Shown in pieces: positions 9,295 to 44,781 of a stretch of 45,062 nt of DNA (position 1 is its first letter; the number at the start of each line of letters is the position of its first letter). Source of the DNA: Veterinaerplatzvirus T145P1; the sequence record OZ035765.1. The stretch is one strand, 5' to 3'. Below the pieces are notes generated by a model, which did no database searches, was not told where the DNA came from, and saw nothing but the letters and a program-made list of their open reading frames with translations. The position numbers and the translations under genes are program-made.

Positions 9295-9337
9295 TAGCAC
9301 TTTTTGCTAAAGCGGTTATTCAACTTTGCTGTATAGT
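9295..9337 (+). promoter_or_regulatory. conserved promoter/operator module
   Basis: TAGCACTTTTTGCTA, 22 bp, TATAGT, leader TACCTCATCGAAACGA. Confidence 0.5.
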
Positions 9338-30329: not shown

Positions 30330-30745
30330 AGATTACAGATAAAGAAGATTACATTGAGTTTTACCAGGGTCCGGTTAAGTCATGCCCTAAAGAGGATGAC
30401 GAACAAATCTTTTGCTCTGATTGGGTTAAGTATAACTACCCAGATATGGTATTTTTCCATTGCGTGAATGAGGGAAAGAAAACCATTGGTCAAGCAAGAA
30501 AAGACCAGGCTAAGGGGCTTCTAAAAGGCGTATCAGACTGTATGTTTCTTATTCCTGAATCACTTCGAGGTAAGTATCCTTTCGGAGCTATAGAGCTAAA
30601 GAGGGCTGGCAAAACTCAAGCAAGTCCAGTCAGCGAAGAACAGAAAGCATTCCTGAAAAGTGTAATGGAATCAGGCGGTTTCTCGGCAGTCGCCTACGGA
30701 CGTGAGGGTTTTCTTGCAGCATTCAAAGAAATGATTTCAAAATAG
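30326..30745 (+). CDS. VRR-NUC-like nuclease (putative)
   Basis: 139 aa; D...E-L-K type motif (DCMFLIP...AIELKR); ATGA overlap with helicase. Confidence 0.5.
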   Translation: MKITDKEDYIEFYQGPVKSCPKEDDEQIFCSDWVKYNYPDMVFFHCVNEGKKTIGQARKDQAKGLLKGVSDCMFLIPESLRGKYPFGAIELKRAGKTQASPVSEEQKAFLKSVMESGGFSAVAYGREGFLAAFKEMISK

Positions 30746-30785
30746 CACGAATTGCTAAAGACGATTTTAAAAGATGGGGTATAGT
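30743..30785 (+). promoter_or_regulatory. conserved promoter/operator module
   Basis: TAGCACGAATTGCTA, 22 bp, TATAGT, leader TACTCCATCGAAACGA. Confidence 0.5.
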
Positions 30786-35594: not shown

Positions 35595-37178
35595 TCACCC
35601 CAGCAATCTCGGATTAATGTAAACTTTATCACCAATCAGGCACGTATAGTTTTTCTCATCAAGCATTGGCAGTAAGTGATCTTTAATCTTCGTCATCACT
35701 CCAGCCTGAGCCTCGAACGGCTTAACCTTTCGCGCCGCTTCATACAATGAGCGAATGCCAACAACACCCTTACCGTTTTTACCCTGCTTGATCAGGATAT
35801 CAATCAGCTTATTCATCTCGGCATTGTCGCCAGCGTGACCAGCCGCGTTGGCAGATGACAAATAAGTCTTGCTAAGCTCCTGGAACATGATTACAGCTTC
35901 TTGCATGGTATCAAGCTCAATCTCTCTGGATTTCTGTGGACTCCCACCGCTAGGGTTGAACCAGTTGCGCACTGTGTGAAGAACAGCAGCAATCCTGATA
36001 GCCTGCTTATCGAATTTACCCAGCGCGCCGCGCAACATTGTGTGGGAATACTTACCGCCGTCCGCAAGGTGCGGCTCCATTTCCTGACGTGCCCGGTTTA
36101 GATATTTCATCGCTGAGTTGCTAACCGTCAACTTTACTTCTTGCTCATTCATGATTTCGTGAACCAGGCGGAAGTAGTTAGCCTTAAGCTCACCATCAAT
36201 TGGCTCGTAAGTTGAGTTGCCATTCTCATCGACGAATACACGCTCGCCAAGGAATGATTTTTCACGCACAAGTAGAAAACGTTCCGACACACCAATACCA
36301 CGAGCACCAGCATTCATGATTGCGTTTATTGTCTCATCTTGCGCAATTACAGAGATGCATCCCATAGCGACGAAGCTCATGTTGTTTTCTGCGTTCGCAC
36401 GCGCAATGGACACGTTACCAGCATCCCACGCCTTGAGTACGAGCTCGCTGTTCGTTTTCTTTGAGCCATCACCATAGGTCATACCTAGCAGAGAGTTCAC
36501 GCTCGTTGCTTCATCAGAGATAACCGCGAAGTTGCCCTGGCGGTTGTTTATTCGCGCAAGACCTTCAGGTGTCGTATCTGATACTGGAAATACGATATCG
36601 CACATCTTTTCCAGCTTCTCCTCTAAATCCTCTTTCTCCTCAAAGAGAGACGCCATCTCTGATGGTGACTTTTCCTGCTTCATCTCTTTGGATAATGCAG
36701 ACAGCTTTGCCATAATCTTTTTACGCTCACGCTTTCGCACTTCATTAAGCCGCTCAGTCTCAGCAATCATTGGCGCAATAGAAAGCGAGTTAATTGCTGA
36801 TTTACCTGTGGATGGTGGCTGACTGGTTACTACGTATAGAGAGGTCGGTTGCTGGGTTCCGTGATACTCTACTGTAAAACGTCCCAGCATGGCGGCAGAA
36901 ATACACCCCAGAAAGTGCATATAAGCTGAAGACTCTGGAAATTGAACAGAACGGGCAATATTGGCTGACAGCTTACCAACAACATCAATGTCATTACCGA
37001 GTGAGATTACGGGATACTTGTCATTAGCCGCATCAATCTCAACTGGCGCTTTCCAGAATGATTGAGACTGACGATATCCATTGGCATTAATAGCGACGCG
37101 CAGGGGTGGGAGGTTGTCTGCGGCAGCAATTGCCATAACCTGTTCAACAGATAGCTTATCTTCGTTGAAATCAAACAT
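35595..37178 (-). CDS. P-loop NTPase of unknown function
   Basis: Walker A-like SQPPSTGKS and Walker B-like FAVISDEA separated by a charged coiled-coil insertion; own promoter module upstream. Confidence 0.6.
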   Translation of the reverse strand: MFDFNEDKLSVEQVMAIAAADNLPPLRVAINANGYRQSQSFWKAPVEIDAANDKYPVISLGNDIDVVGKLSANIARSVQFPESSAYMHFLGCISAAMLGRFTVEYHGTQQPTSLYVVTSQPPSTGKSAINSLSIAPMIAETERLNEVRKRERKKIMAKLSALSKEMKQEKSPSEMASLFEEKEDLEEKLEKMCDIVFPVSDTTPEGLARINNRQGNFAVISDEATSVNSLLGMTYGDGSKKTNSELVLKAWDAGNVSIARANAENNMSFVAMGCISVIAQDETINAIMNAGARGIGVSERFLLVREKSFLGERVFVDENGNSTYEPIDGELKANYFRLVHEIMNEQEVKLTVSNSAMKYLNRARQEMEPHLADGGKYSHTMLRGALGKFDKQAIRIAAVLHTVRNWFNPSGGSPQKSREIELDTMQEAVIMFQELSKTYLSSANAAGHAGDNAEMNKLIDILIKQGKNGKGVVGIRSLYEAARKVKPFEAQAGVMTKIKDHLLPMLDEKNYTCLIGDKVYINPRLLG

Positions 37179-37995: not shown

Positions 37996-38038
37996 ACTAT
38001 ACATTGAAAGCCCCGAAGGGCTTTAGCAATTAGTGCTG
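37996..38038 (-). promoter_or_regulatory. conserved promoter/operator module
   Basis: Minus strand TAGCACTAATTGCTA, 22 bp, TATAGT, leader TATCCAATCGAAACGAAACG. Confidence 0.5.
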
Positions 38039-38187
38039 TTTCGTGCTTTCTCTATCGCCTTGAGCATGATTTCGTGACTCTCAAGCAAATCCTCATTGAA
38101 CCAATCTCCGCAAGGCCAGCCCTTTCCGCTATACGCACTTATGACTTCCAGATCGAAATAATTTATCTCAGATGGCAGGAGCATCAT
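38023..38187 (-). CDS. hypothetical protein (54 aa)
   Basis: Translationally coupled; stop codon lies inside the operator palindrome. Confidence 0.3.
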   Translation of the reverse strand: MMLLPSEINYFDLEVISAYSGKGWPCGDWFNEDLLESHEIMLKAIEKARNSTNC

Positions 38188-38426
38188 TTCACCTCATCAA
38201 AAGTTGCAATCCCAGGAATAAACATCCCAACCTTCCAGCCTGCAATGGCAATCCATCCAGAATCGTGCTTGTGCGGTCGCTCAGCGCCATTAATCACCCA
38301 TTCGTTCGGGATTGTCTTGCCGTTAATGATTAGAGGCTCAGCGTCGTATACAGAGCCTTTAACGAATGGTGTTAAGGCTTTCTTGTCAGTGCTATTGATA
38401 ACGTTAGTGCAGATTATTTTAGTCAT
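38184..38426 (-). CDS. hypothetical protein
   Basis: 80 aa, GAGG RBS. Confidence 0.45.
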   Translation of the reverse strand: MTKIICTNVINSTDKKALTPFVKGSVYDAEPLIINGKTIPNEWVINGAERPHKHDSGWIAIAGWKVGMFIPGIATFDEVK

Positions 38427-38610
38427 TTACAACCTCGTACTCACCTTTATAAACAGCGACCTCTTCATTCACATTGTTTACAATCACTGCTAAACAAAGA
38501 GCACCCAAATATTTTACCACTTCGTACTCGCAGCCAAGCGTCAGACCATAGTCCTCACATGAACGTCCACTGCAATCTAAATCTTCGAATTTAACTAACT
38601 TAATTTTCAT
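38419..38610 (-). CDS. hypothetical protein
   Basis: 63 aa, GAGGA RBS. Confidence 0.45.
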   Translation of the reverse strand: MKIKLVKFEDLDCSGRSCEDYGLTLGCEYEVVKYLGALCLAVIVNNVNEEVAVYKGEYEVVND

Positions 38611-38620
38611 ATCTCAATCC

Positions 38621-38800
38621 TCAAATAAATGGCAAGCATTCGACGCAGCCAAGCCCATCACAGCACATGAATTCATCTTCTGACTGGAATTGCTTTGCTA
38701 AATCAATGTCTAGCCTTCCGCGCACCACAAGGTCGGTGTAATCTTCATTAAGCCCAATCAGTGCGCACTCGTTACGTAACTCATCTTTATTCTTTTTCAT
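38621..38800 (-). CDS. hypothetical Cys-rich protein (59 aa)
   Basis: C-terminal CCDGLGCVEC cluster; ATGA coupling with the upstream gene. Confidence 0.35.
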   Translation of the reverse strand: MKKNKDELRNECALIGLNEDYTDLVVRGRLDIDLAKQFQSEDEFMCCDGLGCVECLPFI

Positions 38801-38964
38801 TTATCCTGGCCTTTTAAATTATAACGCTCTCTCAGAACTTCAACCCATTCTTGCGCGTCATTCTCTCTCATGAAGAAACTTAAATTTGGGTACTTGTGAA
38901 ACCCTTTAAGTTCAACTATCCAATGACCACCTTCGTAACTATAACTAACTTTCTTCTCTGTCAT
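38797..38964 (-). CDS. hypothetical protein (55 aa)
   Basis: First gene of the minus-strand operon after a long structured leader. Confidence 0.35.
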   Translation of the reverse strand: MTEKKVSYSYEGGHWIVELKGFHKYPNLSFFMRENDAQEWVEVLRERYNLKGQDK

Positions 38965-39175
38965 TTTGTTACCTTTTGAGTTTTTTTATTATCGACATCT
39001 CTTCAACGTACTCGCTACAACTCGGGATTTTACTCCCGGCCCGGCATCCTAACAAAAGGACCCGATCGGCGCTTTGGTGGGTGAGGTAACGCTTCCTCAC
39101 ATTGCGCGGTAGTATTTACTCCTTTTGGTCTCTTTCGAGAGTGACTCAGAGTCTGCTACCGTGTCGATGAGATTA

Positions 39176-39219
39176 AGTATACGCATAGTTAGCCACACTG
39201 TCTTTAGCAAAAAGTGCTA
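39176..39219 (-). promoter_or_regulatory. conserved promoter/operator module (minus-strand small-gene operon)
   Basis: Minus strand TAGCACTTTTTGCTA, 23 bp, TATACT; followed by about 200 nt leader. Confidence 0.45.
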
Positions 39220-39232
39220 TTCGTTAGATTTA

Positions 39233-39321
39233 TGTATTGTTGCAGATATTGCAATGATTCACTTGATTATTGCACATACAGCAATATTGCTTCCGATGCA
39301 ATGATGTTTTTGATTGTTGCG
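39233..39321. repeat. iteron-like array of ATTG(N)TGCA / ATTGCAAT motifs
   Basis: At least six related motifs spaced 14-18 bp apart. Confidence 0.5.
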
Positions 39322-39508
39322 AAAAGTGAAATTAAGTGGTGAGTGAGTGAATGAAAGATGGATGGACTACCATACAAGTTGATTTTTACCAATCTATGGG
39401 AGCCTCACGGATATACGCGTATCCTCCGTATACTCAGTGTCGTCACAAAAGTTAGTGACCACTAACCTACGTTTTTACGCGATATATACACACGATATAC
39501 AATATAAT

Positions 39509-39574
39509 ATCTATATATATCAACCTTTTACTTTATTATTATTATTATTATTATATATATGTATACTGTGTATA
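39509..39574. repeat. AT-rich block, copy 2 with longer (ATT)n tract
   Basis: Same core as 20695-20751 with two to three extra ATT units. Confidence 0.7.
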
Positions 39575-39614
39575 CCGGTAATTGGTGAGATTATTGATAT
39601 GTTCCGCGCAGATA

Positions 39615-39632
39615 TTCTGACACCTGTCAGAA
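39615..39632. promoter_or_regulatory. perfect 8-bp-arm inverted repeat TTCTGACA-CC-TGTCAGAA
   Basis: Directly readable palindrome downstream of the AT-rich block and upstream of the 39850 gene. Confidence 0.45.
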
Positions 39633-39849
39633 ATGGATGGCATTGTAGGAATAAAAGGCACATATATAGGGAATGGCTTCAAAAATCTGTACACATCGGA
39701 TACGGCACATTTACAACCAGCAATGGAGGGGCCTCTGGAGGCAAGAAGCGTATCCATGATAAAATAGACGAAAATATACATTGACCGACACGTAAATAGA
39801 TGGCAATATAGCAGTCACTGAAACGAAGTAAAACAAACGAGGTATCAAC

Positions 39850-40398
39850 ATGCAGAAAGTAACACTAGGTGAAGTTATCCGTGAGATGGTGCGCAACGCG
39901 ATGGTGTCCGAGAGTGGTGAGTTTAAAGTTCCGGTTAGCCAGATATTCAAACTGGTTCGAGGCAAGGAATACCCTGAAATGGTGTATGACGAAGATACTA
40001 GTGAGATCCTCAACCTGGCAGATAGGGCGATGCCGGAACTAAAGAACTCATACATCTATAACACAGTGTCGAGAATGACAGAGCTTCGCGATGCTAATAA
40101 GCGAGCGAGATATAAGTTCATCTGGATTGATGATGACGGAGAGCAAACAAGGCCCGGTAGCTTCGACGGTGATGGCGCTGATAAATACCTGGTCATATAC
40201 ATTGAGAACGGCGCGCACTGGACTGGGAGTCGCGAAAAGAAAAAGCAGGAAGCGGAGAAAGAGGCGGCTATCATTGAAAAGTTCAAGTCTAGACTGCTCA
40301 AGCTGTCACCAAGTGTTGCTGGCTTGGAAGGTGAAGAACTTAAGGGCGCTGTTACAATGATTAATGCTTATCAGGAAATGATTAAGGAGACTAAGTAG
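39850..40398 (+). CDS. hypothetical protein
   Basis: 182 aa; first plus-strand gene after the divergent control region. Confidence 0.5.
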   Translation: MQKVTLGEVIREMVRNAMVSESGEFKVPVSQIFKLVRGKEYPEMVYDEDTSEILNLADRAMPELKNSYIYNTVSRMTELRDANKRARYKFIWIDDDGEQTRPGSFDGDGADKYLVIYIENGAHWTGSREKKKQEAEKEAAIIEKFKSRLLKLSPSVAGLEGEELKGAVTMINAYQEMIKETK

Positions 40399-40489
40399 TA
40401 GACTACCATACCACTTGCGGTACAGCGAGGAAGAGGTTGAGGTGGCCATTGAGTTCTATCGGAAAGCTAAATCACTACTGAATGGTAAA

Positions 40490-40533
40490 TAGCACTTTTT
40501 GCCTAACGCGGTAATGCCATGGATGGCATAATA
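40490..40533 (+). promoter_or_regulatory. conserved promoter/operator module
   Basis: TAGCACTTTTTGCCTA, CATAAT, leader GCCTCATCGAAACGAG. Confidence 0.45.
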
Positions 40534-40570
40534 GCCTCATCGAAACGAGATACGTAAATGAGGATTTAAA

Positions 40571-40789
40571 ATGAGCAAGACAATCACGCTGCAATGCCTT
40601 AAGACAAATAACCCAGAGTTCTTAAAAGGTCACAAATATGTGGCAACCCTGGTGGATGGGAAAACATGGGCGGTTAAGGGTGGATTCCAGGATTACAAAT
40701 TCCCACTTGAGCACATACCTGGCGGAAACCTTGGTTTTGTTAGTGACTGCCGCTCAGTTAAGTTTGTTTTTGAGGTTGTAATGAAATAG
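40571..40789 (+). CDS. hypothetical protein
   Basis: 72 aa; promoter module at 40490-40533. Confidence 0.45.
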   Translation: MSKTITLQCLKTNNPEFLKGHKYVATLVDGKTWAVKGGFQDYKFPLEHIPGGNLGFVSDCRSVKFVFEVVMK

Positions 40790-44704: not shown

Positions 44705-44781
44705 GCTCGAGTGGCGAAAGTGGATATCGCAAGAGACTTCTAATCTCTAGATTGCTGGTTCGAATCCAGCCTCGAGCGCCA
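44705..44781 (+). tRNA. tRNA-Arg (anticodon UCU)
   Basis: Hand-folded cloverleaf: 7-bp acceptor GCTCGAG/CTCGAGC, D-arm GCGA/TCGC with GG loop, anticodon stem AGAGA/TCTCT with loop CTTCTAA, T-arm GCTGG-TTCGAAT-CCAGC, discriminator G, encoded CCA. Confidence 0.85.

Follow-up and report, generated by a model that had tools for sequence, protein, structure and literature searches.

An earlier note on this phage DNA had proposed, from the letters alone, that the small-gene operon on the minus strand is preceded by a long 5' leader rich in structure, which might be a regulatory RNA. This raises the question of whether the leader holds a real, conserved RNA structure and, if so, what such a structure might do at the start of an early phage transcript.

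Genome context and promoter of the leader

The window (the whole stretch of DNA analyzed, 45,062 nt) is the complete genome of a T1-like coliphage of the Drexlerviridae, subfamily Braunvirinae, and its leader region is 100% identical to the Veterinaerplatzvirus T145P1 record OZ035767. The window opens with the terminase genes. A non-coding region of 630 bp (39222-39849), a candidate operator or origin region, divides a rightward operon from the leftward (minus-strand) operon that bears the leader. Downstream in the leftward operon, the product of 35595-37178 matches DUF3987 in the precomputed Pfam hits of its homologues. A tRNA (44705-44778) was the sole Rfam match above the gathering threshold in the whole window. 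The intergenic region contains three ATTGTTGCAnATATTGCAAT-like repeat copies (39236-39332) and TATATA-rich tracts (about 39480-39570), and positions 39199-39500 are about 90% conserved across many phage records (the query matched 105 records). The features of this setting are:

44705-44781, plus strand: tRNA-Arg(TCT), identified by ARAGORN near the end of the rightward small-gene operon
39199-39221, minus strand: conserved upstream promoter motif AATAGCACTTTTTGCTAAAGACA, which includes the -35-like AAGACA (promoter scan)
39204-39199, minus strand: -35-like hexamer AAGACA (promoter scan, sigma-70-like)
39181-39176, minus strand: -10 hexamer TATACT, separated from AAGACA by a 17-nt spacer (promoter scan)
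38797-38964, minus strand: gene of a 55-aa protein, partner of the RNA by co-occurrence

The earlier note had placed a promoter about 200 nt upstream of the first start codon, and the scan agreed with this, identifying a sigma-70-like AAGACA-17-TATACT arrangement. The predicted transcription start lies at 39169/39168, 7-8 nt downstream of the -10 hexamer, which gives an untranslated leader of about 205 nt ahead of the ATG at 38964. The AATAGCACTTTTTGCTAAAGACA motif was found in four copies in the window compared with 0.03 expected, at 39199-39221(-), 38019-38037(-), 9296-9314(+) and 30744-30762(+). The recurring module consists of AATAGCACTTTTTGCTAAAGACA, 17 nt, TATAnT and then the conserved first-transcribed sequence (T)CATCGAAACG(G)AGGAG; it recurs in many Drexlerviridae (for example, loci L140, L141, L142, L150, L152 and L170), and the motif stands at the head of short-leader operons in other members of this group. 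AAGACA, the best -35-like hexamer, is weak, and the strongly conserved part of the module lies upstream of it, a pattern that may reflect an UP-like element or a phage-specific factor. An internal promoter candidate (TTGTTA-17-TAAAAT, 39055-39027) was rejected because its hexamers vary among homologues.

A separate observation concerns the copy of the promoter motif at 38023-38040(-), which apparently encodes the last codons (...RNSTNC*) of the open reading frame at 38023-38187 (AAT AGC ACT AAT TGC TAA). The hexapeptide RNSTNC also terminates P0008, a remote homologue of the 55-aa protein (L198, about 1630-1650). The open reading frame was considered as a paralogue and rejected, with only this C-terminal hexapeptide in common with P0008. 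Promoter modules seem to overlap the 3' ends of genes and may mark mosaic joints.

The leader contains a conserved RNA structure

Comparison of homologous leaders defined a multi-helix element followed by a short spacer. The parts are listed below, with the 5' and 3' strands of each helix separated by a slash:

38991-39168, minus strand: structured RNA element of 178 nt, in which the closing helix P1 surrounds about eight further helices
39168-62 / 38997-91, minus strand: P1, compensatory changes
39160-57 (+39155-54) / (39114-13+) 39111-08, minus strand: P2, compensatory changes
39152-48 / 39122-18, minus strand: P3, compensatory changes
39140-37 / 39132-29, minus strand: P4, with a GAAA tetraloop at 39136-33, compensatory changes
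39107-04 / 39072-69, minus strand: P5, uncertain and invariant
39100-39095 / 39086-39081, minus strand: P6, compensatory changes
39064-57 / 39050-42, minus strand: P7, compensatory changes
39041-34 / 39027-19, minus strand: P8, compensatory changes
39017-13 / 39008-04, minus strand: P9, invariant
38965-38990, minus strand: A-rich unstructured spacer with a weak Shine-Dalgarno sequence, AAGGT (38975-38971)

The three hairpins that the earlier note had read in the leader are all present and correspond to P6, P7 and P8. In P1, transcribed bases 1-7 pair with bases 172-178, and the 3' end of the element lies about 26 nt ahead of the ATG at 38964. Four different promoter contexts all place the -10 hexamer 6-7 nt ahead of the first base of P1, and one of them, at locus L197, is an unrelated canonical TTGACT-17-TACATT. 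Given this constant distance, the RNA begins at or next to +1.

Folding of the leader gave a minimum free energy of -60.3 kcal/mol compared with -48.3 +/- 4.0 kcal/mol for 200 dinucleotide shuffles (z = -3.0), and 2 of the 200 shuffles were as stable. Since the opposite strand folds equally well (z = -3.45), the thermodynamic evidence alone is weak, and we regard the comparative evidence as decisive for the structure. Structure prediction and covariance analysis across related phages had been suggested as a check; when 24 copies of the element (20 distinct) were aligned by fitting to a covariance model, the fold was conserved in the 24 copies, with 96.5% of pair cells paired and compensatory double changes in 18 of the 53 pairs. 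Sliding the 3' partners by 1-3 columns reduced pairing to 35-42%, with at most 4 compensated pairs. The covariation score was 0.206 compared with 0.098 +/- 0.007 in shuffles, and none of 500 shuffles equaled the observed value. As this alignment was itself fitted to the model, the test was repeated with MAFFT and RNAalifold on 14 sequences, which recovered P1-P4 and P6-P9 with 16 compensated pairs. The MAFFT alignment gave a different pairing for the P5 bases, which is a possible alternative, and P5 and P9 are invariant and hence lack covariation support. The sequences fall into few clades, so that the number of independent events is modest, and a naive all-against-all search for covariation and pseudoknots was dominated by phylogenetic correlation.

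Individual changes illustrate how the helices are maintained. The first five distinct homologues align over 188 columns without gaps, and their differences lie in loops or are compensatory. In P1, ATCGACA/TGTCGAT is replaced by ATCGAAA/TTTCGAT; in the GAAA-capped hairpin, CTCTC/GAGAC is replaced by CTCCC/GGGAC and CTTCC/GGAAC; a further paired change converts GGTAG/CTACC to GGTG/CACC. The most diverged clade (L198, L201 and L202) compensates in P1, P2, P4, P6 and P7, and its P4 loop is changed from GAAA to GCGA, both of which are GNRA tetraloops. The loop change in this clade (39136-39133; alignment columns 40-43) coincides with a change of two adjacent P7 pairs from CC:GG to CU:AG (39059-39058/39049-39048; columns 123-124 / 133-134), and this co-change matches the known tetraloop-receptor preference for GNAA or GNGA. 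Such a match would suggest docking of P4 on P7; the co-change happened only once, and one of the two pairs varies in L196, L181 and L193 with the loop unchanged.

Strand and coding capacity of the element

Compensatory changes of this kind would also preserve hairpins in DNA. The region could in principle act as a DNA-level signal, such as the single-strand hairpins of an origin or priming site or a protein-binding array, and both its position beside the 630-bp repeat-rich divergent intergenic region and the replication genes downstream in the operon (35595-37178, DUF3987) are in line with this. The two strands are, however, not equivalent. The mirrored structure on the plus strand had 86.6% of cells paired compared with 96.5% on the minus strand, a difference that arises because 12.4% of cells are G-U pairs, and this asymmetry fits an RNA on the transcribed strand. 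Under unrelated promoters, too, the first base of the element coincides with the predicted transcription start; most relatives with the same replication genes lack the element, and it travels with one small gene. A DNA-level role is thus very improbable.

The earlier note had also seen no open reading frame in the leader. As a literal statement this did not stand, since mechanical open reading frames are present at 38969-39100 (43 aa, GTG) and 39097-39210 (37 aa, TTG); the region is nonetheless effectively non-coding, as the frame is not conserved. One of these frames is annotated in ACG-M12 as gp01 (51 aa; YP_006987896, L002:147-302), and GenBank coding sequences over the element are likewise annotated in IMM-001 (ATI17140, L003:100-246) and in G8, as an N-terminal extension of EcG8_035 (L001:1728-1928). 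These annotations and the mechanical frames are what a small protein-coding gene at this site, as annotated in ACG-M12 and IMM-001, would have in its favor. Against it, in-frame stops occur in L196, L199, L200 and L198; of the homologues, ACG-M12 and ECH1 alone have an ATG, and poly-A indels shift the C-terminal frame. The changes in IMM-001 would, in frame, be D to L, L to P, S to F and M to I with one synonymous; in the RNA they lie in loops or are compensated by their pairing partners. A coding gene here is therefore the least credible reading of the region, with next to no probability, and the coding sequences annotated over the element in ACG-M12, IMM-001 and G8 are very probably spurious, which corrects the database annotation over the element in these three phages.

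Taken together, the long structured leader proposed earlier is borne out as a fold that is conserved, supported by covariation, on the transcribed minus strand and starting at the predicted +1. Comparative sequence analysis confirms the element as a real, conserved RNA structure.

The RNA is more constrained than the gene behind it

Between the window and IMM-001, identity was 86.5% in the element compared with 70% in the gene (nucleotide) and 64% in the protein. At loci where the protein is only 46% identical to that of the window, the RNAs were about 97% identical, with a handful of differences and scores of 222-232 bits against the window-type model. Substitutions within the element fall in loops or are compensated. 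Several unpaired segments were invariant in all 20 distinct sequences, among them the P6 loop AAGCGUUA, CUGAGUCAC, and GAGUUGUAGCGA...GUUGAAGAGAU. The element shows near-zero indels, in contrast to the spacer between it and the start codon, which ranges from 25 to 32 nt among homologues with variable sequence and poly-A indels.

The element and the 55-aa gene form an accessory module

To define the distribution of the element, we searched phage, bacterial and metagenomic collections. In blastn searches it was present in only 9 of 50,697 phage records: three T145P1 isolates, G8, ACG-M12 (two records), SCS31, ECH1 and IMM-001. In INPHARED, blastn with the RNA and tblastn with the 55-aa protein returned the identical 9 records, and tblastn with remote members of the protein family gave only records within the same nine. 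At each of the 24 loci that encode a member of the protein family, the RNA lies directly upstream, with model scores of 125-239 bits, and ends 25-32 nt ahead of the start codon. No copy of the RNA without the small gene was found in any collection searched. Exact-pattern scans of IMG/VR did not find the element among the matches listed; a scan gave either no match or matches only in contigs unrelated to this phage group, which were taken as chance. A scan of JGI metagenomes gave 9 chance matches with the element absent, and no match to the element was found in GTDB genomes or in E. coli genomes and plasmids. The covariance models R1 and R2 detected nothing real over 39 other Drexlerviridae loci; one weak candidate (L156:4116-4318, 15.6 bits) was rejected because it extends over a promoter motif and over the 3' end of a gene that encodes 236 aa.

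Relatives that carry neither the RNA nor the gene show how the two are placed. In CEB_EC3a (L141), L142, L150 and L152, the same promoter is followed by a short leader of about 25 nt (CTCATCAAAACGAGGAGATAGATATG) and then directly by the gene that corresponds to the second gene of the window; the beginning of this standard short leader and the 5' strand of P1 are homologous. By comparison with these relatives, the extra unit between the promoter and the second gene is the RNA together with the 55-aa gene (38964-38797), and since the relatives have neither, this unit is an inserted accessory module. The earlier note had described the leader as standing ahead of the operon; its upstream position holds, but the link is to the first gene (38964-38797) and does not extend to the whole operon, which relatives possess without RNA and gene.

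Two further loci are of interest in this respect. At L197 (a Logan SRR32406211 contig of 11.5 kb), the module stands behind a different canonical sigma-70 promoter and among different neighbors, with a Phage_pRha/ANT-domain gene downstream; on this setting, the RNA and the small gene move between genomic contexts as a unit. In Rtp (L140:59-520; AM156909 about 45750-46161), the same position is occupied by about 410 nt without annotated genes and with two tandem promoter modules. This stretch is not unusually structured (z = +0.88) and shares only a 19-nt patch (GAGTCACTTCCGAA...), which has about 95% identity with the P3/P4 part of the element of IMM-001 type; the patch may be a relic of the module.

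The 55-aa protein is a poor candidate RNA binder

The 55-aa protein matched no family in Pfam or PHROGs, and only four close homologue clusters were found among 5.8 billion proteins. A HMMER scan of 1.84 billion representatives combined with a profile search added remote members of 49-58 aa with 38-48% identity. The AlphaFold2 model (pLDDT 83.4) predicts a beta-beta-beta-alpha fold. With this model, Foldseek found nothing under E = 0.29 in the PDB, a search of BFVD returned only the ACG-M12 orthologue, and the fold searches revealed no resemblance to a known RNA-binding fold. The protein has a net charge near zero, K24 and R47 as its only invariant basic residues, and no arginine-rich stretch. 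Its near-neutral charge and the presence of only two invariant basic residues argue against RNA binding, and make the protein appear a poor candidate for this role.

Possible functions of the element

We examined the leader for features through which a structured RNA could control the gene behind it. The terminator scan of the minus strand (38000-40600) found no terminator-like site and no U-tail, and a canonical Hfq-type small RNA is unlikely for lack of an intrinsic terminator or U-tail. Pairing between the element and the translation start region was not conserved, and duplex energies in diverged members were no better than those of shuffles. An inverted repeat (I7, 39061-39050 / 38971-38960) was tried as an anti-start-codon pairing and rejected as not conserved, being no better than shuffles in IMM-001 and L182; extended folds were rejected as a switch since the alternative pairings were inconsistent. 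With no terminator, no conserved pairing to the start region and no consistent alternative fold, a classical riboswitch platform is absent.

The reading that fits best is a leader that acts in cis on the small early gene, as a regulator or sensor, and whose 5' end is base-paired, because the element has a fixed place at +1 and a fixed short distance to one gene family; we hold it tentatively, with a probability somewhat short of one half. Under this proposal, positions +1 to about +178 would adopt a compact fold while RNA polymerase moves away from the promoter, and the invariant loops and junctions would bind a partner that is constant in the host, either a host protein or machine or a small molecule. 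A constant E. coli host factor or small molecule is the more likely partner because the RNA is near-constant while the protein drifts; the 55-aa product of the phage itself would be less likely. Binding of the partner would set the output of the first cistron via translation initiation on the adjacent spacer, mRNA lifetime, or both. RppH and the 5' sensor of RNase E need unpaired 5' nucleotides, and the fully paired 5' end may shield the transcript from decay that depends on these enzymes. Several points stand against a cis-acting leader: there is no conserved expression platform; the small protein appears a poor RNA-binder candidate; an association with one gene family and a very narrow distribution are atypical of metabolite riboswitches; and a 5'-end stabilizer or a protein operator usually needs much less than 178 nt and about nine helices.

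The main rival of the cis-acting leader is an independent non-coding RNA, or the RNA component of an RNA-protein particle. Cleavage, perhaps by RNase E within the A-rich spacer, would release it from the 5' end of the early transcript, and it would act in trans, either alone or with the 55-aa protein, as for instance a decoy or inhibitor of a host factor or defense system. The RNA outconserves the gene behind it, its invariant loops and junctions suggest a binding surface, and it lacks an expression platform. Its borders at P1 are sharp and self-contained and give way to a variable AU-rich linker, and the pairing of RNA and protein is strict in both directions. It also comes first after the immediate-early promoter, a place in which phages often put accessory anti-host functions. 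These features would suit an RNA acting in trans. However, the element has no terminator or other defined 3' end, the constant 25-32 nt to the start codon is leader-like, the protein is neutral and unlike known RNA-binding folds, and the RNA was never found without the gene. We consider a trans-acting RNA possible but clearly less likely than the cis-acting leader.

RNAs this large and conserved are usually riboswitches, ribozymes or the cores of RNA-protein particles. To our knowledge, almost no such RNAs have been reported in virulent T1-group coliphages, in which early gene control is largely uncharacterized. Here, an RNA and a tiny orphan protein are swapped as a unit at the first position behind an immediate-early promoter. 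The element might be the founding member of a new functional class of RNA (a riboswitch-like sensor, a ribozyme or an RNA that binds a host factor) within a two-part module with its 49-58-aa partner, a doubtful though serious possibility. If true, this module would be the first that T1-like coliphages express in an infection, perhaps as a means of sensing or countering a host defense or physiological state. The system is compact and genetically tractable (a 45-kb E. coli phage with natural relatives that do and do not carry the module) and could help both to uncover a new function of RNA and to learn what the protein does.

Comparison with known RNAs and regulatory systems

An Rfam scan had been suggested as a further check on the leader. 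With the 4227 covariance models of Rfam 15 at the gathering threshold, no match was found in the leader, in keeping with an RNA that has no described family; at E <= 10 over 38700-39900, the best match within the leader was c4-a1b1, with 15.7 bits compared with a gathering threshold of 46.7. ARAGORN found no tRNA or tmRNA in the leader. Our literature search found no paper that describes the element. A 2023 catalogue of structured phage RNAs was built from IMG/VR 3.0 and holds motifs of 29-151 nt (PMC10690425); the element is probably not among them, because our scans of IMG/VR gave no element among the matches listed.

Among host mRNAs, the closest precedents are the ompA-type 5'-terminal stem-loops that stabilize transcripts in E. 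coli, and the first transcribed bases of the element are similarly held in a helix. By this precedent, the element could be a passive 5' stabilizer or insulator that protects the 5' end and keeps Rho and RNases off the untranslated stretch without any sensing. P1 begins at the predicted +1 in all promoter contexts, and the need of RppH and RNase E for unpaired 5' nucleotides points in the same direction. However, a single terminal hairpin would suffice for this purpose, and a leader of about 25 nt is enough in the relatives. The element is far larger than an ompA-type stem-loop, its sequence constraint goes far beyond what a stabilizer needs, and the invariant unpaired segments, the scarcity of indels, the GNRA loop and the exclusive link to one gene would be left unexplained. 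Protection as the sole function is thus unlikely.

Phage lambda provides another precedent, in which the N gene follows nutL; here too, a structured RNA starts an early phage transcript and a small protein gene comes next, regulatory in the case of lambda. By analogy with lambda N-nut or HK022 put, the element could modify RNA polymerase as nascent RNA and confer resistance to pausing or termination along the early operon. Its position directly after the early promoter, where a long operon of small genes begins, would suit such a role, as would the small gene that follows it. In HK022, putL likewise lies just downstream of PL (PMC9378689). The put RNA, which binds the zinc-binding domain of the RNA polymerase beta' subunit and suppresses terminators, is about 70 nt with two stem-loops (PMC9378689), unlike the 178 nt and about nine helices of the element. 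Unlike lambda nut, no boxA (CGCUCUUA-like) is readable, and the 4-bp stem of P4 is capped by a GAAA or GCGA tetraloop in place of the GNRA-like pentaloop of boxB; unlike N, the 55-aa protein has no arginine-rich motif. No terminator-like site was found on the minus strand from 38000 to 40600. Relatives appear to run the same operon from the same promoter without the element, and antitermination is therefore not needed there. We judge this explanation improbable, slightly more so than passive protection.

The 5'-UTR RNA motifs of acr-aca operons, which serve the translational autorepression of phage anti-CRISPR genes, begin right at the transcription start and stop about 20 nt short of the start codon; Aca1 or Aca2 binds them and represses translation (PMC13551039). 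The layout is the same in the present locus, in which a promoter is followed by an RNA motif that runs from the transcription start to shortly before a small early phage gene, and both systems are accessory. The acr-aca motifs are single hairpins, with inverted repeats of about 20 nt, in contrast to the 178 nt and about nine helices found here. They are also bound by a helix-turn-helix regulator encoded in the operon, whereas the first four genes here contain no helix-turn-helix or Pfam domain.

In architecture, the element resembles riboswitch aptamers and the large leaders of ribosomal-protein operons. It is a multi-helix junction closed by P1, with invariant junctions and loops and a GNRA tetraloop, and it forms a covarying domain that is always upstream of homologous genes and is better conserved than the gene behind it. 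It departs from riboswitches in having no Rfam match and no expression platform, and in being restricted to one gene family, of no assigned function, and a few coliphages. On the sequence comparisons made here, the element is apparently a new RNA family among the structured 5' leaders of phage early genes, and an unusually large and tightly constrained one for a leader of this kind.
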